Shown here one piece after another: positions 43,341 through 59,626 of a stretch of 64,000 bases of DNA. Position numbers and translations under genes: made by a program. The stretch comes from Ignavibacteriales bacterium (GTDB lineage: Bacteria; Bacteroidota; Ignavibacteria; UBA10030), in contig JAPLFP010000201.1 in assembly GCA_026390585.1 (NCBI GenBank), forward strand, positions 1,247-65,246. The letters are read 5' to 3'. Below the pieces are notes generated by a model. The model saw only the letters and a program-made list of their open reading frames with translations, was not told the DNA's origin and searched no databases. The first letter of the stretch is position 1. Every line of letters starts with the position of its first letter.

Positions 43341-43984
43341 ACGAGGCTGTCGTGATCGTTTTCTGGAGGGGGTTGGCCTTCCGGAGGCAGGAATGTTTTT
43401 GTCCGGGCGTGCAGTCCGGGCGGCATGGGTCTTGGTGGGGGAGCAGGCCAGAACAATTCACGTACGTCGTGAATGATGAAGTAAATCGTCATGCCGATTG
43501 CTGTGAGAAAACAGAGGACTCCAAAGACTACGACAACCGAAGCGATGTCTCCCGCCGAATCGATGTTTCCCATTTGTGTGCACAGCCATCGCCAGTCGTG
43601 TAACGCGTGCCTTGAGATGAGCGTCAGTTGTGTTTTCGGTGCATCATCAATGTAGACGGAGACGTTCATCATGTTGTGGCCGAGCCAATACGGTGTGAGC
43701 ATGAGCGAGCGAAGTCCGCTAGTTCTCAGGAAGACAAGGATGGTTGCCGTCGGCAGGATGAATTGCATGAGTGAGCCGCCAAGGAAGTAAATGAACTGAC
43801 CGAAAACCCGGAAGACACCGTGCCCGCCTTCGTGTATGAACAGATCAATCATGTCGAGAAGCCGTACAAAGATCGGCATCTCAAATCGTCCATGAGGCGT
43901 CAGATAGTCAGTCGACATGTAAAGAGAATAGTAGCAGAGTACGAAAAGGAGAAAGCATTCCAGAGCAATCAGGGCTTTTTTCAT
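43337..43984 (-). CDS. Polytopic membrane protein with an HExxH motif (putative intramembrane metalloprotease-like)
   Basis: LFIHEGGHGVFRVFG lies within or next to a hydrophobic segment, with 5-6 TM segments in total. ATGA overlap with tag. The track ORF begins at TTG 44029; ATG 43984 (MKKALIALECF) is preferred. Confidence 0.5.
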   Translation of the reverse strand: MKKALIALECFLLFVLCYYSLYMSTDYLTPHGRFEMPIFVRLLDMIDLFIHEGGHGVFRVFGQFIYFLGGSLMQFILPTATILVFLRTSGLRSLMLTPYWLGHNMMNVSVYIDDAPKTQLTLISRHALHDWRWLCTQMGNIDSAGDIASVVVVFGVLCFLTAIGMTIYFIIHDVRELFWPAPPPRPMPPGLHARTKTFLPPEGQPPPENDHDSLV

Positions 43985-44187
43985 ATGAGGCGCTTTTTCG
44001 TTGCGGATTTTGCTCGAGAACAGTGACAAATAATGCTGAGAATGTAGAGAACAATGGAGAGTAAGTCAATTCGCATGTGTGGGAATGGCAACTTTCTGAG
44101 AATTCCGACATCTCTCTGGTAGCAGGTTGACCGTGATACTGGAAGTGTTAACTTAGTCAGACCGGAACAATCGAAGAACCGAGCATC

Positions 44188-44745
44188 GTGCAGACTCTCA
44201 CGGACGAACAACTCGTAGAACGTATCAAGGTCGATGAAGTGCGCGGATTTGCGCACCTGTATCATCGGTACAAGCATCGTGTTTATGCGTACTGCTACAG
44301 GCTTTTGCGTCACCCTCAGAATGCCGAGGATGCGACACAGGAAACGTTCCTCAAGATCCATCGGTCGTTTCAGCAGCTTGAAAATCCGGCATCTCTGCAA
44401 ACCTGGATCTTCTCTATTGCGCGCAATGAAGCATTTACAATTCTTCGCCGGGTGAAACCGGTGGAAGAGCTCGAGAAAGCGGAGAACGAAGTCTGGGAGG
44501 AAGAGGGTCCGCTGGAACGGATTGTCGAGCGGGAGAGAGCGGAGGTTGTCCAACGCTGTCTGAGTCTTCTGAAACCCGCTTATCGTGAGGTGTTGATCCT
44601 CAGAGAGTACGAACACCTCTCGTATTCTGAGATTGCGAGAGTCACGGGTGCAAGTGAAAGTGCCGTAAAATCGGCTCTTTTCAAGGCGAGAAAAGCGATG
44701 GGGGTGAAATTGGATTCAATGATGAATGAAAGGGATGAGCGATGA
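44188..44745 (+). CDS. ECF-type RNA polymerase sigma factor (cassette 1)
   Basis: Region 2: EDATQETFLKIH, WIFSIARNEAF. Region 4: YREVLILREYEHLSYSEIARVTGASESAVKSALFKARKAM. GTG start. Confidence 0.9.
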   Translation: MQTLTDEQLVERIKVDEVRGFAHLYHRYKHRVYAYCYRLLRHPQNAEDATQETFLKIHRSFQQLENPASLQTWIFSIARNEAFTILRRVKPVEELEKAENEVWEEEGPLERIVERERAEVVQRCLSLLKPAYREVLILREYEHLSYSEIARVTGASESAVKSALFKARKAMGVKLDSMMNERDER

Positions 44746-45158
44746 CGTGCGAAACGTATGAAGAGCAGATAAGCGCTTTGATCGATCATGAGCTCAAGGA
44801 TGAAGAGACGGAAGTGCTTTTCGCGCATCTGAGCACATGCCGACGATGCAGGCACTCTCTGCAATCCGTCTTGGATTTGCGATCTGACTTCGGCGAACAA
44901 GTTCCGCCGATGGCACCGAAGGAGCTGGATGAGAAGGTGCTGCAGAGCGAAACGAGGCCAAAGCTGTATGCTGGCGATCGCAAGCCGATGACACTCCAGG
45001 TGTGGAAGCGAAGGATTTCAATTCCAATGCCGGTCGCGGCCGCCATGGCTATAGTTCTCGTCGCTGGTACCATCGTGTTGACGTCATTGTGGACGAGTCC
45101 GCAGACGATCTATGTGACAACACTGCCGACAGTGGAAGTCAGGGGAAACTTCCCTTAG
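44742..45158 (+). CDS. Anti-sigma factor (zf-HC2 type), single TM, very short ectodomain
   Basis: H-x3-C-x2-C: FAHLSTCRRCRHSL; TM PVAAAMAIVLVAGTIVLTSLW; only about 25 residues after the TM. Start overlaps the sigma stop. Confidence 0.85.
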   Translation: MTCETYEEQISALIDHELKDEETEVLFAHLSTCRRCRHSLQSVLDLRSDFGEQVPPMAPKELDEKVLQSETRPKLYAGDRKPMTLQVWKRRISIPMPVAAAMAIVLVAGTIVLTSLWTSPQTIYVTTLPTVEVRGNFP

Positions 45159-45189
45159 CCAAGCACACAAATTCATTAAGGAGGAACGT

Positions 45190-46137
45190 ATGAAACGATA
45201 TATTCCAGTAATCACAACTATAGCCTTGCTGTTGATCCCGGTTCTCATCTTTACTCAGGAGTCAACAAAGTCGCCCGGTCGGGAGACGCAAAAGATCACC
45301 ATTGTCTCAAGCCGAGGCGACACTGTGGTGCCGCGCGAGATTGAGCTCTCTTCATTGAAACCGTCGCAAAAAGTCAAAGTGTTTTCAAAGCAGGGAGACT
45401 CGATGGTCTTGGGTGAGATAGAAGTTGTCGCGAACTCACCCAGTGTTCAGGACAAGCAATCTAAGAAAGAACCACCTCAGGATTATGTCCCTTACGACAA
45501 AGCTCCCGAGGCGACAAAGCAAGTGCAGCCCAAATACCCTGACGCTGCTCTCAAAGACAGCGCCGAAGGAACAGTGTGGACGAAGGTTTGGATAGACGAA
45601 TCGGGAAATGTCGCGAAGGCGGAGCTCCAAAAGAGCGATGCTATAATTTTCAACCAAGCCGCGCTTGACGCAGTAAAGCAATGGACGTTCAAGCCCGCAA
45701 TGAAGGACGGTAAGGCAATCGCGACATGGGTATCAATTCCATTCCGCTTCAAGATTTCGAAAAGTGGCGAACTTACTGACTACTCGCGGCTGGGAATATC
45801 TCCACTCATCGTGTCTGTAGGACCGCGCACAGGGTACCGCGTGGTGCACCAGCACCCCTATCTCATCGGGCAATCTCCGACCGTATCAAATGACTGGTAT
45901 CCCGAATCCGCGCTGAAGGACAAATTCGAAGGCATTGTGATTCTAAAGCTGAGCGTGAATCTGTATGGAAGAGTAGAACGGGTCGAGATTGAAAGCCACG
46001 CACGTGAGGATTTGGACAGTGCTGCCGTTCAGTTAGCCCGAACGTGGACATTCACACCGGGACAAGCCTACGGAATGCCGGAGAAGACAGTGATACGTGT
46101 ACCCATCGCCTTCTCTTTGGGTCGGCCGCAGAAGTAG
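45190..46137 (+). CDS. Protein with two TonB C-terminal-type domains
   Basis: N-terminal TM/signal. First TonB_C domain: VQPKYPDAALKDSAEGTVWTKVWIDESGNV...WTFKPAMKDGKAI..WVSIPFRF. Second: YPESALKDKFEGIVILKLSVNLYGRV...WTFTPG. Confidence 0.8.
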   Translation: MKRYIPVITTIALLLIPVLIFTQESTKSPGRETQKITIVSSRGDTVVPREIELSSLKPSQKVKVFSKQGDSMVLGEIEVVANSPSVQDKQSKKEPPQDYVPYDKAPEATKQVQPKYPDAALKDSAEGTVWTKVWIDESGNVAKAELQKSDAIIFNQAALDAVKQWTFKPAMKDGKAIATWVSIPFRFKISKSGELTDYSRLGISPLIVSVGPRTGYRVVHQHPYLIGQSPTVSNDWYPESALKDKFEGIVILKLSVNLYGRVERVEIESHAREDLDSAAVQLARTWTFTPGQAYGMPEKTVIRVPIAFSLGRPQK

Positions 46138-46171
46138 AAGGCATAAAGAAAGTTTCCGCGGTTACTTGAAA

Positions 46172-46210
46172 ACCCGCCGGTCTTTCACGCCGGCGGGTTT
46201 CGTGTTTTTC
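46172..46210 (+). terminator. Intrinsic terminator after the TonB_C gene
   Basis: ACCCGCCGG-(9 nt)-CCGGCGGGT followed by TTCGTGTTTTT. Confidence 0.7.
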
Positions 46211-46287
46211 CCCCTTTGAGTGTCACCCTGGCAGGTACGTAAGCTTTCAGGAGGGCGCCCCCTTTCAAATTCCCCACATTCTCACTC

Positions 46288-46315
46288 TTGACAATCTCGT
46301 GATTTTCTTTATATT
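46288..46315 (+). promoter_or_regulatory. Sigma-70-like promoter candidate for glnB-amtB
   Basis: TTGACA (46288-46293), a 16-nt spacer, then TATATT (46310-46315), about 80 nt upstream of the glnB ATG. Confidence 0.4.
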
Positions 46316-46372
46316 GTTAGGTGATGTCAGTGCTAGCCTTACTTTATTCTGTATTCATCACGTTATAGCTAA

Positions 46373-46732
<360 letters not shown>

Positions 46733-46737
46733 AAAGG

Positions 46738-46812
46738 CAGAATACAGAATACAGAGCCTTGCCCTCGCCGTTCTGACTCCTGACTTCTAACTTCTAACTC
46801 CTGTCTTCCTTC
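46738..46812. repeat. Tandem heptamer words in the glnB-amtB spacer
   Basis: CAGAATA CAGAATA CAGAG, about 16 nt, then CTGACTC CTGACTT CTAACTT CTAACTC CTGTCTT. Confidence 0.6.
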
Positions 46813-46850
46813 AACAGAACTATCCACGCCCACCAACATGGAGAACATAC

Positions 46851-48077
46851 TTGAAAATCGACACCGGCGATACAACGTGGCTTCTTATTTCAACGGCTCT
46901 CGTCATGCTCATGACACCGGGACTTGCATTGTTCTACGGCGGCATGGTGCGCAGGAAGAACGTCCTTGGAACCATCATGCAGAGCTTCATCGCTCTCGGC
47001 GTCGTCACCATTCAATGGGTGCTGTTTGGGTACAGCCTGGCCTTCGGACCCGACATTGGTCACGTCATCGGTAATCTGCAATGGGCTGGCTTGAATGGCG
47101 TGGGGCTTGAACCGAATCCCGACTATGCAGCAACGGTGCCGCATCAGGCGTTCATGGTTTTTCAGATGATGTTCGCCGTTATCACGCCTGCACTCATCAC
47201 GGGAGCGTTTGCCGAACGATTCAAGTTCAGCACCTATGTTGTCTTCGTGCTCGCGTGGTCTACGCTTGTCTATGCGCCAATAGCCCATTGGGTGTGGGGA
47301 ATTGGGGGGTGGATCCATAATCTTGGCGCCCTCGACTTTGCCGGTGGTCTGGTTGTCCACATCAGCTCAGGAGTCTCAGCCCTTGCGGCAGCGCTCATCG
47401 TCGGAAAACGAAAAGGCCACGGACACGATCACATGCCTCCTCATAACATGACGATGACTCTCCTCGGCGCATCAATTCTGTGGTTCGGTTGGTTCGGCTT
47501 CAATGGCGGAAGTGCGGCAGCATCGGGAGCGCTTGCAACGTCCGCCTTCGTCACGACGCATATTGCGGCCGCGGCTGCCGCCCTCTCATGGCTTTTTGTG
47601 GAATGGTCTCAACACGGCAAACCGACAATCCTCGGCGCTGCCTCGGGGTGTGTTGCCGGCCTCGTGGCAATTACTCCGGCTTCGGGCTTCGTTGGTCCGC
47701 TCTCTTCACTGGTCATCGGCCTCAGCGCCGGAGCACTCTGCTACTATGGCGTGAATTTCAAACACAAGTTTGGGTTCGATGACTCCCTCGATGCGGTCGG
47801 TGTGCACGGTGTGGGAGGAACATTCGGCGCTCTTGCGACCGGTCTGTTTGCATCGAAAGCAGTCAATGCCGCCGGAGCAGACGGCTTGTTCTTTGGCAAC
47901 GCGTCGTTGCTCGGGATCCAGGCAATCAGTATTGTTGCCGCTGCCGCGTATGCTTTTGTCGTGACGTGGGCAGTTCTTTGGGTGCTTCGACAGACGATGG
48001 GATTGCGTGTAGATGTCGAACAGGAGGTCGAAGGACTCGACCTCAGCCAACATGGCGAAAGCGGTTACATCTCTTGA
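46851..48077 (+). CDS. amtB: Ammonium transporter
   Basis: DTGDTTWLLISTALVMLMTPGLALFYGGMVRRKNV ... LDFAGGLVVHISSG ... DDSLDAVGVHGVGG. TTG start as in the track. Confidence 0.9.
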   Translation: MKIDTGDTTWLLISTALVMLMTPGLALFYGGMVRRKNVLGTIMQSFIALGVVTIQWVLFGYSLAFGPDIGHVIGNLQWAGLNGVGLEPNPDYAATVPHQAFMVFQMMFAVITPALITGAFAERFKFSTYVVFVLAWSTLVYAPIAHWVWGIGGWIHNLGALDFAGGLVVHISSGVSALAAALIVGKRKGHGHDHMPPHNMTMTLLGASILWFGWFGFNGGSAAASGALATSAFVTTHIAAAAAALSWLFVEWSQHGKPTILGAASGCVAGLVAITPASGFVGPLSSLVIGLSAGALCYYGVNFKHKFGFDDSLDAVGVHGVGGTFGALATGLFASKAVNAAGADGLFFGNASLLGIQAISIVAAAAYAFVVTWAVLWVLRQTMGLRVDVEQEVEGLDLSQHGESGYIS

Positions 48078-48320
48078 CCAACTATTTGAAAACACCCCCG
48101 AAATGGCCTCGTTCAAAGCTGTTTTAAGGGCGCCCCTATGGTGGTGCGACACGGCTGCCTTGGGCCTGAACGGATGACCGGTTGACTCTTTCGGCGCATT
48201 CCTGCAAATTGAATCCAGTCTCCTTAGGCTTGTTAGACCGGCACCGTTAACGTTTCGATATCCCCAAACTGACAAGTTCCCCCCAATATCCATAGATGCA
48301 GCCCTGAGTGCTGCGAGCAA

Positions 48321-48971
48321 ATGGAAGATCAATCGAAATCATCTCTGACGATCACGCTCTGGTGGGTTCTCACCGGAGTTCTGATTGTCTCCGCCGCTTT
48401 CATCGTTGGATCGAAGTGGGGACTCTGGACAGCGATTGATGCGTCCGGAATTGTCGCCGGCCTCTATCTCATTGCTTTGACCCTCTATGTTGTTCGCAAA
48501 CCGCTTGGTTGGCGGACACGTCTCTTGGCCTATCTCGTTGTGGGATTTGGTCTGGGAGCTGTGGCATTCTTGTGGTATCGATCGCAAGCCACAGCGGGGC
48601 AACAAGCGACACTCCGACGTCAGCAATACGCGGAGCAGACTCGAGGGAACATGGTCTCGATCATGACGGAGCGTCTTCGTCAATCAATGCAGGAATACTA
48701 CCGCCACGAGCCCAAGGCTCAGGGATCGCTGCGGGAGATCTTCGTCCGTCAAAACCCGGTTCTGAAAGAAGGAAAGAAAGAAGACTTTGACTTCATCGGA
48801 AAATGGAGCCTCAAGATGCAGCCACAGGCGATGGACAGTGTTGTCCTCGTGGCGCAGTCGGACTACAAGGGTAGGAATCCGGACTTCAAGAATCAGGACG
48901 GTACCGTTGGTCGTGTTCAGGAAAAAACGATTTTGACGAGAAAGGGCATCGTTCGTGTCTCAGAAAACTGA
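48321..48971 (+). CDS. Module 1, protein A: 3-TM protein with a C-terminal soluble domain (paralogue of 51633..52310)
   Basis: TMs LTITLWWVLTGVLIVSAAFIVG, GIVAGLYLIALTLYVV, LLAYLVVGFGLGAVAFLWY. The C-terminal KGRNPDFKNQDGTVGRVQEKTILTRKGIVRVSEN aligns with KGRDPQFKNRNGQVGMMQEKSILTEKGITYVSEN of A2. Confidence 0.75.
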   Translation: MEDQSKSSLTITLWWVLTGVLIVSAAFIVGSKWGLWTAIDASGIVAGLYLIALTLYVVRKPLGWRTRLLAYLVVGFGLGAVAFLWYRSQATAGQQATLRRQQYAEQTRGNMVSIMTERLRQSMQEYYRHEPKAQGSLREIFVRQNPVLKEGKKEDFDFIGKWSLKMQPQAMDSVVLVAQSDYKGRNPDFKNQDGTVGRVQEKTILTRKGIVRVSEN

Positions 48972-49767
48972 GCCGACAGACAACACGGGCGGGAAGCAGC
49001 AGCATCTCATTCCAACCGCACTTCTTGTTCAACTCTGCCTGATTGCATTGGTCGCGCTGACGTTGATGATTGTGCTTGAGCGGGTTGTGATGGCGGGAGC
49101 AAGGATGCGTACGGAGCTACAAATCGATTCACCACTTGTCTATCCCTGGATCACTGTGGGTAACACCACACTGACGGCTGCCCTCAGAGGGTTCGAAGGG
49201 AGAATTCCCGGGATCTTGTCTGTGAAGATCTATCTGTTGGCAGGAATGCTGATTGTGTTCGTCATGTGTCCGACGTTCTTTCTGTTTGGCTGGCGTAGAC
49301 GTCGTTTGGCACGAATGAGCGGATCGTTTGCACCCATCCGATCGCTACGGGATGTATCATCCATTGGCTATGCATTTAGCGGCGTTGTTGTGTTCTTTGT
49401 TGTGGTAACCATCGGACCGCTGACAGCAATACAAATGACTCAGTCAGCGTCGCGATGCGAGTCGGACGCAGCACGACTTCTCCGCTATGAAACAACCACC
49501 GAGCTGAATTTCATTTTGGACAATATCCTTCAATACCGGCTTCTGCCGAAAGAAGTTGGCGGTGGGAACGGATCATATATAGGCTACGTCATACCGGAAA
49601 ATCTTGCGAGAACCGACAAGGCAGAGTACACTGCGACGGTGAAGGCCGACAAAGTGATCGTGAAAGCCGAGTCAGCGAACTGTGCTACGAATACGATAAC
49701 GGCGACTCTTGATGCTCATGGCTCCGCGAGACCAATGGACTTCGAAGGCAATTGGGGGTATGGGTGA
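48955..49767 (+). CDS. Module 1, protein B: 3-TM protein with a pilin-like C-terminal domain (paralogue of 52294..53061)
   Basis: GTG start inside the last 17 nt of A1. Shared blocks with B2: MSQKT, CPTFFLFGWRRRRL / CPTVFFLEWRRRRL, LQYRLLPKEVGGGNGSYIGYVIPE / AQYNILPRQLGGGERSFEGFAVPE. Confidence 0.7.
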   Translation: MSQKTEPTDNTGGKQQHLIPTALLVQLCLIALVALTLMIVLERVVMAGARMRTELQIDSPLVYPWITVGNTTLTAALRGFEGRIPGILSVKIYLLAGMLIVFVMCPTFFLFGWRRRRLARMSGSFAPIRSLRDVSSIGYAFSGVVVFFVVVTIGPLTAIQMTQSASRCESDAARLLRYETTTELNFILDNILQYRLLPKEVGGGNGSYIGYVIPENLARTDKAEYTATVKADKVIVKAESANCATNTITATLDAHGSARPMDFEGNWGYG

Positions 49768-49890
49768 TGACAAACCTGAGCGCCGGGTGCGCTTCCCTCA
49801 CACTTCATCGGTACTCTGAACAGATATTCGAACAACACGGTGCTCCATTGTTTGAAGGAACCTCATTTGAAAGACGGTAGCTTGAAGGAA

Positions 49891-50295
49891 ATGGTCAATG
49901 TCGACGCTCGGTTGACCATCGCGGCGTTCTGCCTCCTGGTCATTCTGCAGCTTTTTCCAACCTACTTCTTGTTCGGTATGCGTTCCGTGCCGTACTACGA
50001 TGGCTCTGTGTACTTGATCTGGGTCGGAGTTGGCAGCGCGCTCGTGAGCGGGTTCATCAGCAAGAGAGCCGGGAGACTTGCGTTGTTGGAGTGTGTAGTT
50101 GCCACGGCGCTGTACTGCCTCGTGATCTTCCTGATCTATGGTGGTCACGGTCGGGGATATGCTCTTCGCGGGGGTGTGGGATCAGGGAATGTGCTCATTT
50201 TTCTTGTCTTCCTCCTTTGTATCCTTGGCTCGATTGCTGGACGGGTCATGGGATTGCGCGAAGAGAACAAAGTATCGACACTGACCCCTGAATAG
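49891..50295 (+). CDS. Module 1, protein C: small 4-TM protein (paralogue of 53098..53529)
   Basis: Four hydrophobic segments; same size and topology as C2, with a basic C-terminal tail. The track ORF begins at GTG 49840. ATG 49891 aligns better with C2, but the start is uncertain. Confidence 0.55.
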   Translation: MVNVDARLTIAAFCLLVILQLFPTYFLFGMRSVPYYDGSVYLIWVGVGSALVSGFISKRAGRLALLECVVATALYCLVIFLIYGGHGRGYALRGGVGSGNVLIFLVFLLCILGSIAGRVMGLREENKVSTLTPE

Positions 50296-50533
50296 TGTTG
50301 CAAGAGCATCAGTCTGAAGTCTTACCTCATATCATCTCATTTCGTAACTGAGGTTCTCAGCGCAATGGGCATGTGAAAATCGGTCGCACCCATTTGCCAA
50401 CCTGCGAAATCCCATCAAATTCCTGAATCAAACTCAGCTGACTTCAAAGAGCCCTGTCCGCTCAGCAACTTTTTGCTTCTTTGTGGGTCTTATGGCAAAT
50501 TAGGGCAGCGGTCAAGACCACAAGGGCCCCCCA

Positions 50534-51073
50534 TTGGAATTCCAGACTGAGGAACAGCTTGTAGAGAGCGTGCGGCGCGGCGACACAGACGCGTTCGAAG
50601 AACTCTACCATCGTTACAAGCGTCATATCTTCACGTTCTGTTTGAAGCTGACAGGTGATCGCTCCCTCGCCGAAGACGCTACGCACGATACGTTCCTCAA
50701 GATGTATCAGAACGTGGGGACATTGACTGATACCAGTGTCTTTCGGTCCTGGCTTTTCACCATAGCGCGCAATGAAGTCTTCAAAATGCTCCGTAAGCAT
50801 CACCGAAACGGAACAGTGGACGCAGAATCTGTCTGGACAGACGAAACTCCGCTCACCTTCGCACAGACGAATGAAACGAAAGCCATCGTGATGGCTTGCA
50901 TTGATTCTCTCAAAGTGGAATATCGAGAAGTGTTGCTTCTGCGCGAATATGAGCAGCATACATATGAGGAAATTGCCGCGATCACGGGGAGCACAGAGAG
51001 TTCGGTAAAATCAAGATTGTTTAAAGCGCGGAAAGCGCTGGCTGAGAAACTAAAACCGTATTTCAAATTGTGA
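50534..51073 (+). CDS. ECF-type RNA polymerase sigma factor (cassette 2)
   Basis: EDATHDTFLKMY, WLFTIARNEVF, YREVLLLREYEQHTYEEIAAITGSTESSVKSRLFKARKAL. Paralogue of 44188 and 57115. TTG start. Confidence 0.9.
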   Translation: MEFQTEEQLVESVRRGDTDAFEELYHRYKRHIFTFCLKLTGDRSLAEDATHDTFLKMYQNVGTLTDTSVFRSWLFTIARNEVFKMLRKHHRNGTVDAESVWTDETPLTFAQTNETKAIVMACIDSLKVEYREVLLLREYEQHTYEEIAAITGSTESSVKSRLFKARKALAEKLKPYFKL

Positions 51074-51180
51074 CTCCATTCTGATCCTTCTGCGGGAGGG
51101 TAGATAACATCCCTCCCCCTCACAGGGGCAGGTCAGGAGGGAGTCTGATGTAAGTCATCAATGTGTAGGAGCGCTACCCC

Positions 51181-51603
51181 ATGAACCACGAAAACTTTCA
51201 ACAGCGCATCAGCCTCTATGTTGACAATGCGCTGAGCGACACAGACACGGCGACACTCTTTGCTCACCTTTCACGATGCGCCGAGTGCCGGGAGTTCATG
51301 AGATTGACGTTGGGCGTCCATGCATATATAGCGGAAGAGGAGCTGGCTGAAGTCCCGCTCTCTCTCGACCGACGCGTCCTCGCAAGCGTAGCAATGGCAT
51401 CAGATCAGCCAGAACGAAGACCATGGTATGCGCCGATGTGGTTCACCAGGATCTCGATTCCTTTGCCGGCAGCGGCCTCGATATTATTTTTGATTATCGT
51501 TGGCAGCCTGTTGTTTTCACCGATCCTTGCTCAGGAACCACAACATCAAACTGAAATCCCGGCGTCCTTGATCTCAAGAATTCCCGCTTCGCTTCAGAGA
51601 TAG
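51181..51603 (+). CDS. Anti-sigma factor (zf-HC2), single TM, short ectodomain (cassette 2)
   Basis: FAHLSRCAECREFM; TM LPAAASILFLIIVGSLLF; about 30 residues beyond the TM. Confidence 0.85.
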   Translation: MNHENFQQRISLYVDNALSDTDTATLFAHLSRCAECREFMRLTLGVHAYIAEEELAEVPLSLDRRVLASVAMASDQPERRPWYAPMWFTRISIPLPAAASILFLIIVGSLLFSPILAQEPQHQTEIPASLISRIPASLQR

Positions 51604-51632
51604 CCGAAGTTGAAGAGATAGGAGCTCTCGTT

Positions 51633-52310
51633 ATGGAGAAAAACACAGTGACTATCGAAATCAAACAGGAAGTTTCGATCACACTTCTCTGGATTGTAGC
51701 TGGGGTGATCTTTGTTTCTCTGGTTTTTTTGCTTGCGCCTTCTTCAATGGAACTCTGGCCATCGCTCAACGCAGCTGGAATTGCAGGTGCGGTGTATCTC
51801 ATTGCGATGCTGACCTATGCGCTCCGCAAGCCGCTGGAGATGAGGGTCAGGGTCTGGATTGGCGTTGCGGCTATCGTCGTTCTTGCGCTCGGAGCGTTCA
51901 CATGGGTGGGGATGCAGGCTCAGACCGAATTCCAGGCCGACATGATGATGAAAATCAGGGGCGTCATCGGCAGAAATGTCATGCGACGCTATGTGTCGGA
52001 GGTGCCCCTCAAAACTCTGGACGAGTTCTATCAACAGCGTGGCCCAAATAAGTCATCGTTGGCGGATATCTTCTGCAAAGAGAACCCGGGAGCGGTAGTA
52101 GGAGCAAATATTCACAGGCCCGAATGGGAGGGCGATTGGTGGCAAGTTGTCGTCACGAAACTCGAGCCGGCGACGATCGAGCTTCTTTCACAGGAAACAT
52201 ATGTGAAAGGGCGGGATCCGCAGTTCAAGAACCGCAATGGCCAGGTTGGAATGATGCAGGAAAAATCCATTCTGACAGAGAAAGGAATCACGTATGTCTC
52301 AGAAAACTGA
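51633..52310 (+). CDS. Module 2, protein A (paralogue of 48321..48971)
   Basis: Same 3-TM plus soluble-domain layout; ends ...EKGITYVSEN. Confidence 0.75.
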   Translation: MEKNTVTIEIKQEVSITLLWIVAGVIFVSLVFLLAPSSMELWPSLNAAGIAGAVYLIAMLTYALRKPLEMRVRVWIGVAAIVVLALGAFTWVGMQAQTEFQADMMMKIRGVIGRNVMRRYVSEVPLKTLDEFYQQRGPNKSSLADIFCKENPGAVVGANIHRPEWEGDWWQVVVTKLEPATIELLSQETYVKGRDPQFKNRNGQVGMMQEKSILTEKGITYVSEN

Positions 52311-53061
52311 TTCTCCGGATTTTGCCTCCGGATTCATATGGCAAATTGTCCTCCTGACAGTCGTTGTGCTTTGCTTTGCCGTCTATGTACGCAGTCAGGA
52401 GCATTCGATGAGTAGACTGGGTGTTTCGTCGCCGACCACAATCTTCCCATGGATGATCGGGGGAAAGCAGACGATTGGAAACGGTCTTCGGGCATTCGGT
52501 GGCAAGCCGCCGGAGCCCCCGCCAATCGATGATAAGGTCCGAGCACTTGGCCCTGTCTTGGTCAGTATGGTTCTCTGTCCGACAGTCTTCTTTCTTGAGT
52601 GGCGGCGGCGACGGTTAATGAAAGAAAGGCCTTTCCAAAAAACGCCATTGAGAATATCCGGCATCTTCTATGCTCTCTGTGGATTGGTGGTCGTGTTAGT
52701 GGCGGTAGCGGTCGGACCGATAGCATATTTCGGAGAGAGTGCGCGGGCAAACACTCGGCACGCTCATGCCATTCAAAGCAATAGAGACGTTATCGATAAC
52801 GAGCTGTACTTCCTCGCTGTCGATGCAGCACAGTACAACATTCTTCCGAGGCAACTCGGTGGTGGTGAGCGAAGCTTTGAAGGGTTTGCGGTTCCGGAGA
52901 CGAAAGCAAAAACAGAAGAGGCGTCATATTCAGTGACGGTGACAAAGAGCATGGTTTCATTTCGCGCTACATCTACAAGATATCCTTCTTCCACCGTTCA
53001 AGTGAACGTTGACAGCCTCGGACATATACGTGATTGGAGATATGAAGGTGAGTTCCAATAA
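52294..53061 (+). CDS. Module 2, protein B (paralogue of 48955..49767)
   Basis: The ATG lies inside the last 17 nt of A2; see B1 for the shared blocks. Confidence 0.75.
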   Translation: MSQKTDSPDFASGFIWQIVLLTVVVLCFAVYVRSQEHSMSRLGVSSPTTIFPWMIGGKQTIGNGLRAFGGKPPEPPPIDDKVRALGPVLVSMVLCPTVFFLEWRRRRLMKERPFQKTPLRISGIFYALCGLVVVLVAVAVGPIAYFGESARANTRHAHAIQSNRDVIDNELYFLAVDAAQYNILPRQLGGGERSFEGFAVPETKAKTEEASYSVTVTKSMVSFRATSTRYPSSTVQVNVDSLGHIRDWRYEGEFQ

Positions 53062-53097
53062 TTGCTCTTCACGGTGAGAGGCTACCAGGAGAAAACA

Positions 53098-53529
53098 ATG
53101 AACGACACACAGACATTACGTTTGACGAAGATTGACTGGCGATGGCTGGTCGTCACGTACTGCTTTCTCGTCCTCTTCCATCTCTTGCCCACCCTTCTTG
53201 AATTGAGCTTGTGGCAATTGTTTCTCTCCCACGGGATTTGGCAATTTGTTGCTTGGACTGCATTCGGCGTCGCTGTGGTTGGTGGATATGTAGGGTACAG
53301 ATCGCACGGCACCAACATTCTGGAGCCGGGCATTGCGTCAATGCTTTATGTGGCGACGCTGATTGTTCTATTGTCAAAAGTCCGCGACGTCCAGGCTTCA
53401 GGGTACCGGCTGATTGGATTGCTGGTCGCGCTTCATCTCATTGTGTTTCTGGTTGGCTGTTTTGGCGCAGCGGTCGGGAACTGGTTGAAGACACGAAGGG
53501 AACGAGAAAAAGAAGTCGGCGACAGTTAG
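53098..53529 (+). CDS. Module 2, protein C (small 4-TM protein)
   Basis: AGGAGA lies 7 nt upstream of ATG 53098 (the track ORF starts at 53062). Four hydrophobic segments and a basic tail KTRREREKE. Confidence 0.6.
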   Translation: MNDTQTLRLTKIDWRWLVVTYCFLVLFHLLPTLLELSLWQLFLSHGIWQFVAWTAFGVAVVGGYVGYRSHGTNILEPGIASMLYVATLIVLLSKVRDVQASGYRLIGLLVALHLIVFLVGCFGAAVGNWLKTRREREKEVGDS

Positions 53530-53735
53530 CAACCCGCGAGATCCTCGCGTAACAAAACCCTCATATTCACAGCGTTTCTTGATAGTGGGCCGAAAAGTTG
53601 TCGCCCGTCATTGCACTTCAACGCGAAATAAGTACATTAAAAATGTTGTATCATGAGCACCAGTCCACTCCCGGACAACCTCAGTTCATAGAAAAAGTCG
53701 GCTCAATCGCGATTCCACAATTCGAAGGACCATGC

Positions 53736-55376
53736 ATGCGTATTCTTGCCCTCGTTGTTACCATTCTTTGTGCAAGCGCTCTTTATGCTCAAGAGGTGAC
53801 AGTCATTTCAGGGAAACTTCTCGGCTATGACAAGAAACCGATGTTGATGGCTCACGCTCACCTGCTGAAGACTTCCAGCCCCAAGCCTCTCGCCCAAGTT
53901 CGCGCGAAGAACGATGGATCCTTTGAGATTACAACGAAGGAGACCGGACTGCTTGTTGTGGAATTCACCGGTGTCAGCCACCGGGCGCTTGACGTTCCTT
54001 TCCTTGTTGAGAAGCCGCTCAAGATCGAACTCTCTGTCAGCCTGTCAGCCTATTCGTACGCCGACGAGATGAAGGACGTGAAGATTATGACAGACATGAC
54101 TGACTATGCCTTTGACAAGGCGCAACCGATGCAGAAACAAAGCGACGGCACGTACGCGATCGAACTTCAGACGACCAAGGACAAGGTCACTTATCAGGTC
54201 CTCGGTGCCGAGAAGACCGGCCGCAGTATCAATGGGACGCAATCGGACGCCTTTGAGTATGATGATGCCGGTGATTATCGCTCAATTGTGGCGGCGAAGG
54301 AGGGTAAAGTGAAGATCGTGTTCGATCCGTCGAAAACTCTTCGCTCGACGGCGGAAGGGGAAGTGAAATTTTCGGATCCTACCGCAACGGTCGCCAAGCT
54401 CGCGGGCATACAGATGGAAATTGGCAAGCGTGCCGCAGTCATATCAACTGCGATGGACGCATTCATCAAGGCAGGGAATAACTGGAAGAACTTCACCTAC
54501 GACTGGTCCGCAGATCAGGCTTCTATTGTGTCGCGACTGAAAACAGAGAAAGATCCTATTATACACCAGGCGTTGTTGATGGACTATGTCGACACCAAGA
54601 GCAAGTTCGCGGCCAAGGCCGACCCCGCCATGGGGGCGCGGATGTTGAAAGAGGTTCCGCCGGACTCGAAACTCTGGATGATGCCCACGCTGCCGTTCAT
54701 GAAAGCGGCATGGGATCTCTGTGGCGATGAGAACGCGTTCAAAGAGTACCTCACGAGGTTCCTTGACAAGAATCCTGACATGTCGCTGAAGTCGAACATG
54801 CTCATGAGTAATCTGATGAACGCAAAGATGACGAACGACGAAAAGACCCTTAAATTGTATTATGATGTGGCAGTGAAGTTTTTCGGTGACTCACCGATAG
54901 GAAAGAGTGTGAAGGAGCGCTTCTCGCCGGTCATCAACATCGCCGTTGGAAAAGCAGTACCGGCTTTTAAGGTGAAATCACTTGAGGATACAACAAAATT
55001 CTTCACGAACAACACCTTCAAGGGAAGAGTGTACATGATTGATTTTTGGGCCACCTGGTGCGGACCGTGTGTTGGTGAGATGGAAAATCTTCACAAGGCA
55101 TATGGAAAGTTCAAATCGAAGAACTTCCAGATCCTGAGCCTCTCGCTCGACAAGAAACCGGAAGATGTCGCCAAATTCCGGGCCGACAAGTGGAAGATGC
55201 CATGGCTTCATACGTTCGTTACCGAAGACACGTCGCTCACGAATTCTTTCGAAGTTATAGGGATTCCCAGACCGTTGTTGGTCGACGGAAACGGGAAAAT
55301 CATTGCCATGGAGACAGAGCTGCGCGGTGAGCAGCTTGAAAAAACGCTGGCCAAGTTCCTTGGTGAGCCGAAATAG
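53736..55376 (+). CDS. Secreted TlpA/redoxin-like thiol:disulfide oxidoreductase with N-terminal beta-sandwich and helical domains
   Basis: Signal peptide MRILALVVTILCASALYAQE; C-terminal thioredoxin fold VYMIDFWATWCGPCVGEMENL ... FEVIGIPRPLLVDGNGKII. Confidence 0.8.
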   Translation: MRILALVVTILCASALYAQEVTVISGKLLGYDKKPMLMAHAHLLKTSSPKPLAQVRAKNDGSFEITTKETGLLVVEFTGVSHRALDVPFLVEKPLKIELSVSLSAYSYADEMKDVKIMTDMTDYAFDKAQPMQKQSDGTYAIELQTTKDKVTYQVLGAEKTGRSINGTQSDAFEYDDAGDYRSIVAAKEGKVKIVFDPSKTLRSTAEGEVKFSDPTATVAKLAGIQMEIGKRAAVISTAMDAFIKAGNNWKNFTYDWSADQASIVSRLKTEKDPIIHQALLMDYVDTKSKFAAKADPAMGARMLKEVPPDSKLWMMPTLPFMKAAWDLCGDENAFKEYLTRFLDKNPDMSLKSNMLMSNLMNAKMTNDEKTLKLYYDVAVKFFGDSPIGKSVKERFSPVINIAVGKAVPAFKVKSLEDTTKFFTNNTFKGRVYMIDFWATWCGPCVGEMENLHKAYGKFKSKNFQILSLSLDKKPEDVAKFRADKWKMPWLHTFVTEDTSLTNSFEVIGIPRPLLVDGNGKIIAMETELRGEQLEKTLAKFLGEPK

Positions 55377-55483
55377 CAGAATCGTCACAAGACGGTTTGG
55401 GTTAACGTGGAGGGTGATTTCTCAGGTGGTCGACGATTCAGCAAAACCGTGTGGGAAAAGAATTGACTGGATCGAGGTAGGAT

Positions 55484-55870
55484 ATGGGACAAACACAACT
55501 TCTCCTTGTTATTCTGGGTATCATTCTTGTCGGTGTAGCGATTTTTGTCGGCATACAGATGTTCCAGCACAATTCTGTCGACGACGTGCGAAATTCGGTC
55601 ATGACGGACCTCAACAGTTATGCTGCGCGAGCGTTGGCGTACTATGGAAAACCTACGACGCAAGGGGGAGGCAACAAGAGTTTTGATGGCGTCACGATGA
55701 GCATGATCTTTCCCAGCTCGGAGAATGTCAACGGGCGTTACTACATTGAGAGTGCTGAAGGTGACAACTGTGTAATTGTTGGCGTCGGGAATGCGGTCGC
55801 CGGAGAGGATTCCGTCCGAATTCGGATTCGTGTCACACCGGACCGGAATACTATCGAAATTATTAACTAG
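55484..55870 (+). CDS. Stand-alone pilin-like protein related to the C-terminal half of the B proteins
   Basis: N-terminal hydrophobic helix LLLVILGIILVGVAIFVGIQMF, then an amphipathic helix (VRNSVMTDLNSYAARALAYYG), then PTTQGGGNKSFDGV matching the B-protein LP...GGG..S(F/Y).G block. There is no canonical G/FTLIE prepilin cleavage motif. Confidence 0.55.
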   Translation: MGQTQLLLVILGIILVGVAIFVGIQMFQHNSVDDVRNSVMTDLNSYAARALAYYGKPTTQGGGNKSFDGVTMSMIFPSSENVNGRYYIESAEGDNCVIVGVGNAVAGEDSVRIRIRVTPDRNTIEIIN

Positions 55871-55903
55871 AATCTCAAGAATCACCATTTCAAAGAAGAA
55901 CTG

Positions 55904-56010
55904 TCACGCAAAGTCGCAAAGACGCAGAGCAAATCTAGAAACTAGAACTTTTGCTGCTCTGCGCCTGCCTGCCGCAGTGAGATCTCCATGGCGGGCAGGT
56001 TTCTGCGTGA
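55904..56010. repeat. Word-doublet nested palindrome (copy E)
   Basis: TCACGCA AAGT CGCAAAGA CGCAGAGC ... GCTGCTCTGCG ... CCTGCCTGCC-(16 nt)-GGCGGGCAGG ... TGCGTGA. It shares the CGCAAAGTCGCAAAGA word pair with copy B (20927-20942). Confidence 0.6.
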
Positions 56011-56204
56011 GACTATTTTCTTTCCCAGAGTGTTTTTGAGATAGGATTTTAGAAGTCCAGAGCTAACGAGTCCTTCTCCTCAGTTTCCCATCAAAGCACC
56101 AATAGCTCGTGGAGGTACGACGGGCCTTCTCCAGATGTTATGCATCACCGTTCTCAGCTCACTCGCCCCGATCCCCCAAGAGTCCACTTAGCAACAGAAA
56201 AACG

Positions 56205-56956
56205 ATGTTGATCACTAAACAAACCAGCCGGTTGTTTCTGTGGGTTACGGTTCTCTGGCTTGCATTGCCTCCTTCGGGACTCCTCGGCCAGGGAATGCCC
56301 CGCGCCATCGTTCGAGGTCAAGTCGTTGACGACTCAACTGGTGCCGTGATCCCCTTGGCAAATGTGTTTGTGGTCAGCTCAAAGATCGGCACCAGCTTTC
56401 GGTGACCGCACGAGAACCGCTGAAGGTTGAGAACAAAGCTCTTGGCTATCTCTTTCAGTGTGTGTTGATGTATAGCACGGTAGGAACAGGCACCTTTCAA
56501 TTCACCGCGTTCGTAGGATTTGAAGGGCTCAAGACGACAAATGACAAAGAAGCGAAAGAGTGGGAGAGCAGCCGTCGAAAAGCATACTATGGTTCGAAAA
56601 GGCATTTCCTGGAGTCCCTGATCAGGAAACGATCGAAAGAAGAGGGCTTCACTGCGAATCTGATCGGATTTTCCGGGCAACGAGAAGCATTGCACAAACC
56701 GGTCGAGTTGGAAGTGAATCCGGACACACTGGTGAGTCCCAGTGATTCGCCATATGAGAGGAAACTCAGCTTCATGGGTTACTTGCAGGTTGTCTATTCC
56801 CGCGATGGCGTACTACATATCTCTCTTCTCGAATTGCAGGGACTTGTAGCCGTTATCTACACGAATGGACTGAATCCGCCTGGCATTTGGACACATGGTT
56901 ATTGGTCATTGCAGAGGGCAGCGGAGATGCTGCCGGTTGATTATGAACCGGAGTAG
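56205..56956 (+). pseudogene. CarboxypepD_reg-like domain protein, disrupted (frame change and probably an internal deletion near 56395-56405)
   Basis: Piece 1 (56205..56405): signal-like MLITKQTSRLFLWVTVLWLAL, then VRGQVVDDSTGAVIPLANVFVVSSKIGTS, then stop. Piece 2 (56402..56956, different frame): EPLKVENKALGYLF...RRKAYYGSKRHFLESLIRKRSKEEGF, as in full-length family members. The rest of the beta-sandwich between the two blocks is absent. Confidence 0.55.
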
Positions 56957-56985
56957 GCGTCCCCCCGCAAACCTGGTAAAATCCC

Positions 56986-57010
56986 GGAATCTTCCTGAGC
57001 TTGCACCGTA
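56986..57010 (+). promoter_or_regulatory. ECF-type promoter candidate upstream of sigma cassette 3
   Basis: GGAAT (56986-56990), a 16-nt spacer, then CGTA (57007-57010). This resembles the GAAC/GGAAT-N16-CGT architecture of many ECF autoregulated promoters. Confidence 0.25.
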
Positions 57011-57114
57011 GATTTCGGGATTCTTCCTGCGCTTCCCCCAGCGAGCAAGTTTTACCCTCTTTTCGCATCTTACCTCTTGTAGATACAGTTGTAGCCATCC
57101 GCACCGTGATCTCA

Positions 57115-57678
57115 ATGCACTCTCCTGAAGACAGTGAATTGCTAAGCCAGATCCGTTCCGGCAACGAACGGGCCTTTACGGATCTCTATAACAAGCACCG
57201 GAGAAGACTGCTGGCGTATTGTTTCCGTTTGCTGCAGGACCGGGTCGCGGCGGAAGATGTGGTGCAAGTGGCATTTCAGAAGGCATATGAATCACTCAGC
57301 TCACTCAACAAACCCGAGCTATTTTTCTACTGGCTGTATAGTATTGCACGCAATGAAGTCTATAGCGTGGTTCGCAGAACACGAAAAAACGGCACAATTT
57401 CTTCCATCGACGATGAGAAAGACATCTGGGACGAAGAGACACCGCACGAGCTCGTGTTGAAGAATGAATTGGCAGAACTTGTGCAATATCATCTCAATCA
57501 TTTGAAACTGGAGTATCGAGAAGTCTTGATATTACGGCAGTATGACAAACTATCGTACGCAGAGATCGCAGCCATAACGGGTGACACCATCAGCTCGGTT
57601 GAGTCGAGACTTTTCAAGGCACGTAAAGCGTTAGCAAAGAAGCTTGCGCCATATTTTAACGAAGAGGAGAAATCATGA
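57115..57678 (+). CDS. ECF-type RNA polymerase sigma factor (cassette 3)
   Basis: EDVVQVAFQKAY, WLYSIARNEVY, YREVLILRQYDKLSYAEIAAITGDTISSVESRLFKARKAL. The track start 57001 is rejected in favour of ATG 57115, by alignment with the paralogues. Confidence 0.9.
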   Translation: MHSPEDSELLSQIRSGNERAFTDLYNKHRRRLLAYCFRLLQDRVAAEDVVQVAFQKAYESLSSLNKPELFFYWLYSIARNEVYSVVRRTRKNGTISSIDDEKDIWDEETPHELVLKNELAELVQYHLNHLKLEYREVLILRQYDKLSYAEIAAITGDTISSVESRLFKARKALAKKLAPYFNEEEKS

Positions 57679-58058
57679 ATTGCGTGGAATACCAACAAAT
57701 GATCAGCAGGCTTGTCGATCTCGAGTTGAAGGCGGCGGCGAGTACGGAGCTGTTTGAGCATCTTGGAAAGTGCGCTGAGTGCCGGGAGTTTCTTGATACG
57801 ATGATGAAGCTAACTGCAGAACTCGATAAGGTTGGAATGCCGCTGGAGCATTCCGAATCGATAAGCGACAAGCGTTTCTATGTCGGCGACCGAATGTCCG
57901 CTCCTCGGATGGCTGGGCCACGGTCTTTTCGTTCTCGCATCTCAACGTTTGCGTTGCTTATCATGCTTACGCTTTTCATCGGGCTACTCTTTTCGGTGAA
58001 CATCAGTGCACAGAGAACACAAGAGCCAATTCCTCAAGAACTGGTTCAACCACGCTGA
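57675..58058 (+). CDS. Anti-sigma factor (zf-HC2), single TM, short ectodomain (cassette 3)
   Basis: FEHLGKCAECREFL; TM FALLIMLTLFIGLLFSV; about 22 residues after the TM. ATGA overlap with the sigma gene. Confidence 0.85.
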   Translation: MNCVEYQQMISRLVDLELKAAASTELFEHLGKCAECREFLDTMMKLTAELDKVGMPLEHSESISDKRFYVGDRMSAPRMAGPRSFRSRISTFALLIMLTLFIGLLFSVNISAQRTQEPIPQELVQPR

Positions 58059-58090
58059 CATTTGTTGTAGAAACTTCTGGAGACGAAACA

Positions 58091-59626
58091 ATGGACAAGA
58101 AATCTGATAAATCCTCGAGAGAACTTTTGATGTATTTTGTTCTCGCTCTGATGTTTGGCTTGTTGAGCATTCCAGCCGGCAGGATGATCACTCTCACTTA
58201 TTTTCAATCCCCCGGCCATGTGATACTAAATCTGCGCTGGGTGTTCTGGTTGTGCACTACGCTCTCGATTCTCTGCATACTGCCCCTGTTTAGAGCATTC
58301 TTCTTCGTTCTTCACCAGCGCGGCTCTTTACCAAAATCCGTCGACTGGTTATTTACAGATGAAGTCGAACAAAGAATTGAAAATGCTATGGAACGCCTGC
58401 GATCAAAAGTATTCAGTGCTATCGGTCGCCTCGTGATCGCAGGGGCGAGCATCCTTGTCGTTGTCATGCTGTTGTTCCGAACCGGTGCGATCCACAATGA
58501 TGAGATTGACAGCAATCTCTACGCGCTTGCTCACTCTCTGAAGGGCAAGTATCGACAAGAGGCAAAGTTCAGCAACGTTTCAGTGTTAGATTTTATTCGC
58601 CCACATTACGGCGAATATCTCCCCGACTGTCTCAAGCTCGTTCGGGATCTCAAAGAGGCAGGTGCTAAAGTTGTGCTGCTGCGACTCTCGCCCGAAACTA
58701 CGACTCCTCCGGTCGACCCGAAGGAGGGGCTAAGATTAATAAGAGAACTCGAGAACACGGGCATTGTCGTATTTGGCACACCTTATGGACGTGATTTCCG
58801 TTACGCGGATTCGGCGGGCGAAATAAGATTCTCCAAGGGAACGTTTACCGTCTCAGGGCACAACATGGAGGAGTCGATTGATCTTTGTCGATTCAAGCCG
58901 TCGGGAATGGAAAGAGAATACACTGACCCTCTGCGCGATGTAACATTAGAGATCATTCGCAAATACAAGGGGTATTCAGATCATCTCTCACCCGAGCGTG
59001 GCGCAGACCAAATCAGATTTGGTGATTTCACCATACCAGTGACCAACGACGGCTGGATGTTCTCGCGAGACAAGGGCTTCCCCACCGGTCGCACATTGGT
59101 CTATGTGGACAACAAAGGCGATTGGGTGTATTGGCGTCAACAAGGGTCCATGTGGACCTCCCCTGAGGTGAAAAAGGCGGGGTTAGCAGTGTCGACGCCA
59201 CCATTGGGAGCAATGAAACTCCTAGACGCGGAAGTGCAGGGAAAAATCGTCCTTCTGGCCGAGAGTTTCGGCGAGCGCAACATTTTAGGCTCCAGCACCC
59301 GCGCCTACGCCTCGGCTATTGAGAACATTTTGGCCGGAACAATAACCACGAAATCAGAAACAGGCTATCTTTGGTTGTCTGTGGTCTGTGTGGTAATTGC
59401 AGGCTTCATCGCTTATCGCTTTCGAATGGTCGCTGCCATTCTCTTGATGTCTGTCTTGGCTGTTTGCACACTTCTGTTTGGATCCTACCTCTACGACAGT
59501 CAGAATATCCTTCTCGATATTTTTTATCCGCTCATCTCTCTGGCAATGGCAATGGTGGCGTTTCCGGCTATTGCGTTGGGGCGGAGGGGACAGGAGAACG
59601 AGGTTTTGAAAGAGGTGGTTAAATAG
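58091..59626 (+). CDS. CHASE2-like membrane sensor protein without an output domain
   Basis: N-terminal TMs, an extracytoplasmic region of about 300 aa (NVSVLDFIRPHYGEYLPDCLKLVRDLKEAGAKVVLLRL resembles the start of CHASE2), three C-terminal TMs, then the protein ends. Confidence 0.45.
   Translation: MDKKSDKSSRELLMYFVLALMFGLLSIPAGRMITLTYFQSPGHVILNLRWVFWLCTTLSILCILPLFRAFFFVLHQRGSLPKSVDWLFTDEVEQRIENAMERLRSKVFSAIGRLVIAGASILVVVMLLFRTGAIHNDEIDSNLYALAHSLKGKYRQEAKFSNVSVLDFIRPHYGEYLPDCLKLVRDLKEAGAKVVLLRLSPETTTPPVDPKEGLRLIRELENTGIVVFGTPYGRDFRYADSAGEIRFSKGTFTVSGHNMEESIDLCRFKPSGMEREYTDPLRDVTLEIIRKYKGYSDHLSPERGADQIRFGDFTIPVTNDGWMFSRDKGFPTGRTLVYVDNKGDWVYWRQQGSMWTSPEVKKAGLAVSTPPLGAMKLLDAEVQGKIVLLAESFGERNILGSSTRAYASAIENILAGTITTKSETGYLWLSVVCVVIAGFIAYRFRMVAAILLMSVLAVCTLLFGSYLYDSQNILLDIFYPLISLAMAMVAFPAIALGRRGQENEVLKEVVK

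Follow-up and report, generated by a model that had tools for sequence, protein, structure and literature searches.

Here we describe two old copies of a three-gene inner-membrane module, A-B-C, that lie side by side in the genome of an Ignavibacteriales bacterium (Bacteroidota; assembly GCA_026390585.1). Both are contained in a 64,000-nucleotide stretch of contig JAPLFP010000201.1 (positions 1,247 to 65,246), referred to here as the window; all coordinates are those of the window and features are on the forward strand unless stated otherwise. The pattern is real and conserved in related genomes, and the function of the module is a hypothesis. Copy 2 follows the gene of a sigma factor of the extracytoplasmic function (ECF) type and its anti-sigma gene, and copy 1 follows a promoter-like element of its own. 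The reading that we favor, and hold with moderate confidence, is that A-B, with or without C, is an autonomous periplasm-facing envelope module that would have been put under ECF control in this clade as the main output of the sigma factor.

All six open reading frames (ORFs) of the original prediction are present. Copy 1 consists of A1 (48321-48971), B1 (48955-49767) and C1 (49891-50295), and copy 2 of A2 (51633-52310), B2 (52294-53061) and C2 (53098-53529). A profile scan of the window ORFs found no further copy of A, B or C beyond these six. The proposed gene-for-gene paralogy of the two trios is borne out by pairwise BLASTP. A1 and A2 are 37% identical end to end over 221 columns (E=3e-38), B1 and B2 31% over 271 columns (E=4e-35), and C1 and C2 25% over 144 columns (E=2e-4), a match that is weak taken alone. 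A C-family profile of nine sequences recovers the window copies at 5e-60 and 1e-47, which is partly circular as both are among the nine. Independent support comes from the C genes of three distant loci outside the profile (L017-L019), which match it at E=3.7e-10. The C starts at 49891 and 53098 agree with orthologue alignments. The identification of A1 and B1 draws on BLASTP, topology scan and profile match. Alignment is added for C1, and BLASTP, alignment and profile match identify C2. A2 and B2 are supported by AlphaFold2 models together with 112 homologues and a family of 856 clusters, respectively. The motifs read by eye are all in place, namely ...QEK(T/S)ILT(R/E)KGI..VSEN in the A proteins and MSQKT, WRRRRL and LP..GGG..S(F/Y).G in the B proteins.

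The duplication is old, as had been proposed. The type-1 clade (copy 1 and its orthologues) falls outside the whole type-2 clade in neighbor-joining (NJ) trees built without bootstrap. In the B tree, likewise an NJ tree without bootstrap, the type-1 clade adjoins the first, sigma-headed unit of locus L004. This locus keeps two full units, the first of them grouping with type 1, and the duplicated unit was therefore probably of five genes and not three. The simplest history would be an old five-gene duplication after which type 1 dropped its sigma/anti-sigma pair in the lineage of the window.

At the junction between A and B the overlap is always 17 nt, in all 12 junctions examined. These comprise both window copies and ten further loci, with protein identity as low as about 23%. 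The typical overlap sequence is ATGTCTCAGAAAACTGA, which ends the A frame with ...VSEN-stop and opens the B frame with MSQKT. The reading of these 17 nt in two frames accounts for the strong conservation of the A and B termini at the junction. A Shine-Dalgarno-like AAAGG/GGAGG lies about 10 nt upstream of the overlap, within the LTEKGI codons of A. Such an arrangement suggests translational coupling of A and B and a matched, roughly 1:1 stoichiometry. Adjacent A and B genes with the 17-nt overlap, a WRxR loop after the second transmembrane (TM) helix of B and the head motif LP..GGG..S[FY].G define the A-B(-C) module, and these features are found in both window copies and in other loci.

Copy 2 directly follows a sigma/anti-sigma pair, as originally described. 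Sigma 2 (50534-51073) is an ordinary ECF (group 4) sigma-70 factor with sigma-2 and sigma-4 regions only and a length of 179 amino acids, typical of the approximately 180-residue class. It matches Sigma70_r2 (PF04542, 4.7e-16), Sigma70_r4_2 (PF08281, 4.6e-17) and TIGR02937 (96.5 bits against a cut-off of 42.9). The best-scoring specific NCBIfam models are SigM and SigY, both below their cut-offs. The adjoining gene (51181-51603) encodes a class I zinc-associated anti-sigma (ZAS) factor, anti-sigma 2, with a zf-HC2 match (PF13490, 1.8e-8) and an HxxxCxxC zinc finger that reads FAHLSRCAECR. Its single TM helix (residues 98-116) is followed by only about 24 periplasmic residues, which agrees with the earlier remark that the protein has almost no ectodomain. 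The TM segment RISIPLPAAASI.FL is proline-rich and highly conserved. The gaps leading into and through copy 2 are 29, -17 and 36 nt, and no terminator-like site was found between the copy-2 genes. Copy 2 thus reads as the distal part of a putatively co-transcribed sigma / anti-sigma / A2 / B2 / C2 operon.

The promoter of this operon appears to be of an autoregulatory ECF type. An element at 50465-50490, GCAACTTT-N14-GTCT, was identified by conservation and by a pattern scan of the window. It reads GCAAC-N17-GTCTTA, with an AAC -35 element, a short -10 and a spacing of about 16-17 nt, and this is the architecture of sigmaE-type ECF promoters. The sequence AGCAACTTTTTGCTTCT-N6-GGGTCTTATGGCAAATT is kept upstream of sigma 2 in the window and in nine further upstream regions, those of both L004 units among them. 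In its place L009 has a variant like that of sigma 3. The pattern GCAASTTT-N14-RTCT occurs at three sites in the window (44088, 50465 and 57045), each 5' of a paralogous sigma gene. The count of three is not significant by itself, as 16 of 100 shuffles reach it, and the case for an ECF promoter comes from the placement of the sites and their conservation across genomes.

Upstream of copy 1 no ECF promoter was found within one mismatch. A 32-nt element, TTGACTCTTTCGGCGCATTCCTGCAAATTGAA (48182-48213), is kept there in the window, in L015 and in L014; it is unique in the window and was matched in 0 of 100 shuffles. It can be read as TTGACT-N17-CAAATT and is a candidate sigma70-like promoter, separate from the ECF motif. 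The organism does use canonical sigma70 promoters, as indicated by TTGACA-16-TATATT (46288-46315) upstream of glnB. Inspection by eye also considered whether the ECF promoter could have given rise to the copy-1 element, which was rejected because the spacing does not fit. The idea that A-B-C is the regulon of the sigma factor is compatible with copy 2, which lies behind a putative ECF promoter; copy 1 has its own candidate sigma70-like element. Nearly all orthologues of the sigma 2 promoter have a GCAAATT heptamer after the -10 (window 50491-50505), and the copy-1 element ends with the same heptamer (48204-48213); it could be a shared start site, an operator or a chance resemblance. A search of 43000-58500 against Rfam (E <= 1) found no RNA family, and therefore no known leader or riboswitch is present there.

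The co-conservation of A, B and C is clear from related genomes. Word-indexed searches found 112 A2-type, 41 B2-type and 9 A1-type proteins, all annotated as hypothetical and all from metagenomes or from metagenome-assembled genomes (MAGs) of uncultured 'Ignavibacteriales', 'Ignavibacteriae' or 'Bacteroidota'. A genome scan relying on one peptide pattern gave at least 9 loci. The A1 orthologues P0155-P0161 are 77-86% identical to A1, and one in L014 is 50% identical. The order sigma / anti-sigma / A / B / C is present at 11 distinct loci of related MAGs (copy 2 of the window, L001, L003, both units of L004, and L007-L012). The trio is thus conserved, as proposed, but the conserved unit of the clade has five genes and not three. 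Two further contigs (L005, L006) end just upstream of the anti-sigma gene. Six loci (L001, L003, L007, L008, L010, L011) are syntenic with the window and run from amtB straight into sigma 2, which means that copy 1 is absent there.

The association with the sigma factor has exceptions. A-B-C occurs without sigma in copy 1 of the window, in L015 (which has the layout of the window), in L014 and in a distant locus that contains P0200. In L014 the order is sigma 1 / anti-sigma 1 / TonB_C / terminator / A1-B1-C1 / thioredoxin / p128, with neither a type-2 unit nor the glnB-amtB pair that precedes copy 1 in the otherwise syntenic window. A and B stand without C and without sigma on the 82 kb contig L021, and without C in L020, where the contig ends on the upstream side. 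Four short contigs carry A-B-C with the upstream side outside the contig (L017-L019, L024). The link of A-B-C to a sigma factor is clade-specific, judged from the sigma-free A-B-C of L014 and of the P0200 locus and from the A-B pair of L021. The 11 five-gene loci therefore uphold the association with sigma that was proposed from the window, and these sigma-free contexts limit it. The literature search found no paper linking ECF sigma factors and Ignavibacteria, and the ECF reclassification paper (PMC7826278) contains no mention of Ignavibacteria or of a matching context.

The A and B proteins are modelled on the same plan: a cytoplasmic N terminus, a two-helix hairpin, a third TM helix that continues as a stalk helix of approximately 40 residues, and a four-stranded beta head. 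Three TM helices are seen by hydropathy in each A and B protein. Both AlphaFold2 models, computed with family alignments, have two N-terminal helices, one helix of 64-65 residues and four final beta strands. The long helix spans residues 70-134 in A2 (mean pLDDT, the predicted local distance difference test, 81) and 120-183 in B2 (mean pLDDT 71, above 90 at residues 150-255). The loop after the second TM helix is basic, with lysine or arginine at 4 of 10 residues in A1 and at 8 of 20 in B2, where it includes WRRRRL. By the positive-inside rule this loop is cytoplasmic, which places the heads in the periplasm. Hydropathy gives four TM helices for C1 and three for C2, whose fourth was read from the family alignment, and the description of C as a small 4-TM protein with a basic tail agrees with this. 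The C proteins have basic cytoplasmic loops as well as the tail, and an invariant glutamate inside the third TM helix (LLEC in C1, ILEPG in C2, and IAEI). A and B were also considered as distant paralogues of each other. This was rejected, as profile-profile comparison with hhalign gives a probability of 0.7% and only the architecture is common to both.

None of the three proteins belongs to a known family, in agreement with the original prediction. None of the six has an above-threshold match in Pfam-A, NCBIfam, PADLOC or PHROGs. The sub-threshold matches are sporadic, driven by TM segments and do not recur across family members. Pfam gave nothing consistent on 66 family members, and profile searches of PDB sequences gave no match for the A, B and C family profiles. 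Structure prediction, proposed earlier as a check, did supply the stalk and four-stranded head but led to no known family: Foldseek found no PDB match at E <= 0.001 for the A2 and B2 models. With no curated family matched either, nothing assigns the module to a known transporter or secretion component. The best Foldseek matches of B include PilA (E=0.36), PilX (0.51) and FimU (1.9), none of them significant, and the A model has no pilin match in the PDB. The pilin resemblance of B, as modelled, is a lead on topology and not a sign of membership.

Judged by profile similarity, the head of B is not an orphan and falls into a large family of extracytoplasmic domains that has no name. In an exhaustive HMMER search the B profile matched 856 clusters (50% identity) at E <= 1e-3, 95 of them at E <= 1e-30. 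The best 150 matches are mostly full-length B-type proteins of 240-285 amino acids. The last 100-115 positions of the profile are also found in other settings. They come after one TM helix at the N terminus in small proteins (118-139 amino acids) such as P0276 (with MGQQQLLLIILGVIIVG...), P0298 and P0310; these stand-alone relatives begin with MGQQQLLLIILG and have no Glu5. They form 2-5 tandem repeats after signal peptides (P0163, P0184, P0220, P0233), and they occur within proteins of 1400-2300 amino acids alongside SdrD_B, CarboxypepD_reg and Por_Secre_tail, the last a mark of type IX secretion system (T9SS) cargo. No Pfam model covers the head domain in these proteins. The occurrence in signal-peptide repeat proteins and T9SS cargo gives independent support for an extracytoplasmic location, and the role of the head is probably modular and one of binding. 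The gene context of P0276 was uninformative. The window itself contains a stand-alone version, p128 (55484-55870; 128 amino acids), in which a relative of the B head domain follows one N-terminal TM helix. Among window ORFs it matches the B profile at E=7e-10, and BLASTP gives a GGGNxSFxG match at an E value of about 1e-3. The p128 gene is kept just after a TlpA/ResA-like thioredoxin gene (53598-55376 in the window) in L005, L007 and L014, and the protein belongs to a large set of small MGQQQLLL...-type proteins without a family name.

The preference for the module as an output of sigma 2 follows from its persistence without sigma in several lineages and from the non-ECF promoter of copy 1. 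On this account A and B would form a heteromer, with C as a facultative third subunit of an inner-membrane complex that has its own role in envelope maintenance or binding. Copy 2 would be made in proportion to sigma 2 activity, and copy 1 would be a separately, probably constitutively, expressed paralogue. Feedback of A-B(-C) on the anti-sigma would be possible. Several points weigh against this account. The physical complex is deduced from gene linkage and overlap only, the copy-1 promoter is assigned by resemblance to the consensus at 8 of 12 positions, and the homologues of A, B and C in family, PDB and Foldseek searches include none whose function is known. Further, an anti-sigma without an ectodomain implies that some partner must supply the input, and the window has three paralogous sigma/anti-sigma cassettes each with a different downstream envelope protein, both of which fit a sensor. 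The original prediction of a conserved envelope complex that is either the regulon of the sigma factor or a signal to it is thus compatible with the co-conservation and the putative ECF promoter of copy 2, and the choice between output and input is not settled by sequence.

The sensor alternative is the main rival and is less probable in our estimate. Here A-B-C would act as a co-anti-sigma: by binding to the short tail and TM helix of the anti-sigma it would protect this protein from an intramembrane site-2 (RseP-type) protease, until a periplasmic cue at the A and B heads gives the anti-sigma up to cleavage and so frees the sigma factor. RseP is active on substrates whose periplasmic parts are truncated, and a conserved proline-rich TM helix is expected of a site-2 protease substrate; anti-sigma 2 has about 24 residues outside the membrane and just such a helix. 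The tight linkage of anti-sigma, A, B and C in 11 of 11 loci speaks for the same role, as do the other envelope proteins carried by the paralogous window cassettes (a TonB_C protein and a polytopic protein of 511 amino acids) and the precedent of SigM, which requires both YhdL and YhdK. Against it stand the four contexts in which the module has no adjoining sigma/anti-sigma pair, the A-B pair alone in L021 and the lack of an ECF promoter for copy 1. In addition, anti-sigma 2 shares the RISIP(L/M)P motif with anti-sigma 1, and directly downstream of the latter there is no A-B-C. A bolder form of this idea is unlikely: A-B-C would be an unrecognised signalling device, a heteromeric complex with periplasmic heads. 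It would keep a ZAS anti-sigma without an ectodomain safe from site-2 proteolysis until an envelope cue makes it let go, and the B head would be a new extracytoplasmic binding domain common to surface proteins of the T9SS and to proteins with pilin-like anchors in the Fibrobacteres-Chlorobi-Bacteroidetes (FCB) group. If true, ECF sigma factors would have an input mechanism of a new kind.

Two other explanations are minor and have no sequence support. The long helix and four-stranded sheet of the A2 and B2 models, the weak top Foldseek matches of B to pilins (E 0.36-2) and the existence of one-TM stand-alone versions (p128, P0276) would suit pseudopilins or a PilN/PilO-type platform of a surface fibre or secretion apparatus. 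We consider this improbable, given that no Foldseek match is significant and that A has no pilin match at all. The G/FxxxE prepilin motif is lacking, the pilin-like helix is the third TM helix and not the N terminus, the neighbourhood has no ATPase, secretin or prepilin peptidase gene, and the head domain also occurs as soluble tandem repeats. Slightly more doubtful still is an ion-coupled transporter or motor of the ExbBD/TolQR kind, in which the buried glutamate of C would work with A and B, perhaps serving the neighbouring TonB_C protein. The glutamate is invariant, and a double TonB_C protein is encoded in the same cluster and directly 5' of type 1 in L014. Yet between the TonB_C gene and the module lies a strong terminator, most type-2 units have no TonB_C gene beside them, and C is absent in L020 and L021. 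No similarity of A, B or C to ExbB, ExbD, TolQ, TolR or MotA was found in Pfam or NCBIfam, nor in Pfam for the 66 family members.

Comparison with known systems favors familiar operon logic with unfamiliar proteins. In Bacillus subtilis, sigM-yhdL-yhdK and sigY-yxlCDEFG co-transcribe an ECF sigma factor and its anti-sigma with additional small membrane proteins, the role of which is unclear. The likeness to the putative copy-2 operon is one of arrangement and not of homology: an autoregulated ECF operon in which the anti-sigma is followed by polytopic membrane proteins. A, B and C have no sequence similarity to YhdK or YxlD/E in the Pfam and NCBIfam searches, two of the three extra proteins have sizeable periplasmic heads, and the module also occurs without sigma. 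The Escherichia coli RpoE-RseA system is similar in its single-pass anti-sigma, encoded beside the sigma gene, and in its promoter, GCAACTT-N17-GTCTTA here resembling sigmaE GGAACTT-N16-TCTGA. It differs in that the anti-sigma described here is of the ZAS type with a tail of about 24 residues and no RseA periplasmic domain, and that RseB and RseC are lacking. In type IV pilins and pseudopilins, as in the A and B models, a hydrophobic helix runs into a long helix packed on a four-stranded sheet, but Foldseek E values are at least 0.36, there is no class III signal peptide and the helix belongs to a polytopic protein. The paired membrane proteins PilN/PilO and GspL/GspM are encoded by adjacent, often overlapping genes and combine a TM helix and coiled stalk with a small periplasmic domain of the alpha/beta type. 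The pairing of A and B resembles these by analogy only; neither sequence nor Foldseek searches gave a match, the TM helices of A and B number three in place of one, and no pilus or secretion genes are nearby.

Among the alternative sigma factors of bacteria the ECF type forms the largest class, and to our knowledge the input and output of most ECF groups are unknown. The window offers a clean conserved five-gene unit with a built-in natural experiment, in which ECF control would apply to one paralogue and not to the other, in poorly studied uncultured Ignavibacteria-like Bacteroidota. Two unnamed protein families are exposed that could be registered, the A-B pair with its fixed 17-nt overlap and the GGG-loop head domain with its 856 clusters. 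The practical value is moderate, as operons of sigma factor, anti-sigma and membrane protein are a familiar pattern.

The surroundings of the module contain several other features. The three paralogous ECF sigma / ZAS anti-sigma cassettes lie at 44088-45158, 50465-51603 and 57045-58058 and have the common promoter form GCAA(C/G)TTT-N14-RTCT. They are followed by the double TonB_C protein gene (45190-46137), by A2-B2-C2 and by the gene of the 511-residue polytopic protein, which has no Pfam match (58091-59626). The mechanically called ORF of sigma 3 (57001-57678) has a TTG start at 57001 that precedes its own ECF promoter (57045-57070), and the true start is probably GTG 57106 or ATG 57115. Between the sigma 1 cassette and copy 1 there is a separate unit of glnB (P-II, 46388-46732) and amtB (46851-48077). 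It is preceded by a strong terminator with a 12-bp stem (46170-46200) and then by the near-consensus sigma70 promoter noted above. In L003 (7411-8638) and L015 (4954-6193) amtB is in two ORFs, and L003 has split genes for sigma 2, B and thioredoxin as well; these are likely assembly frameshift errors. A CarboxypepD_reg-like gene at 56109-56956 is broken and is a pseudogene or an assembly error. Its orthologues (350-355 amino acids) match in different frames, residues 21-56 at 56289-56396 and residues 158-351 at 56381-56956, with about 100 residues missing. Farther downstream, on the reverse strand, are a small DUF559-like protein gene (59757-60143) and a gene for a Gln/Glu-rich coiled-coil membrane protein of 1129 amino acids (60345-63734); a similar giant gene lies beside a DUF4159 gene in L003 and L023.

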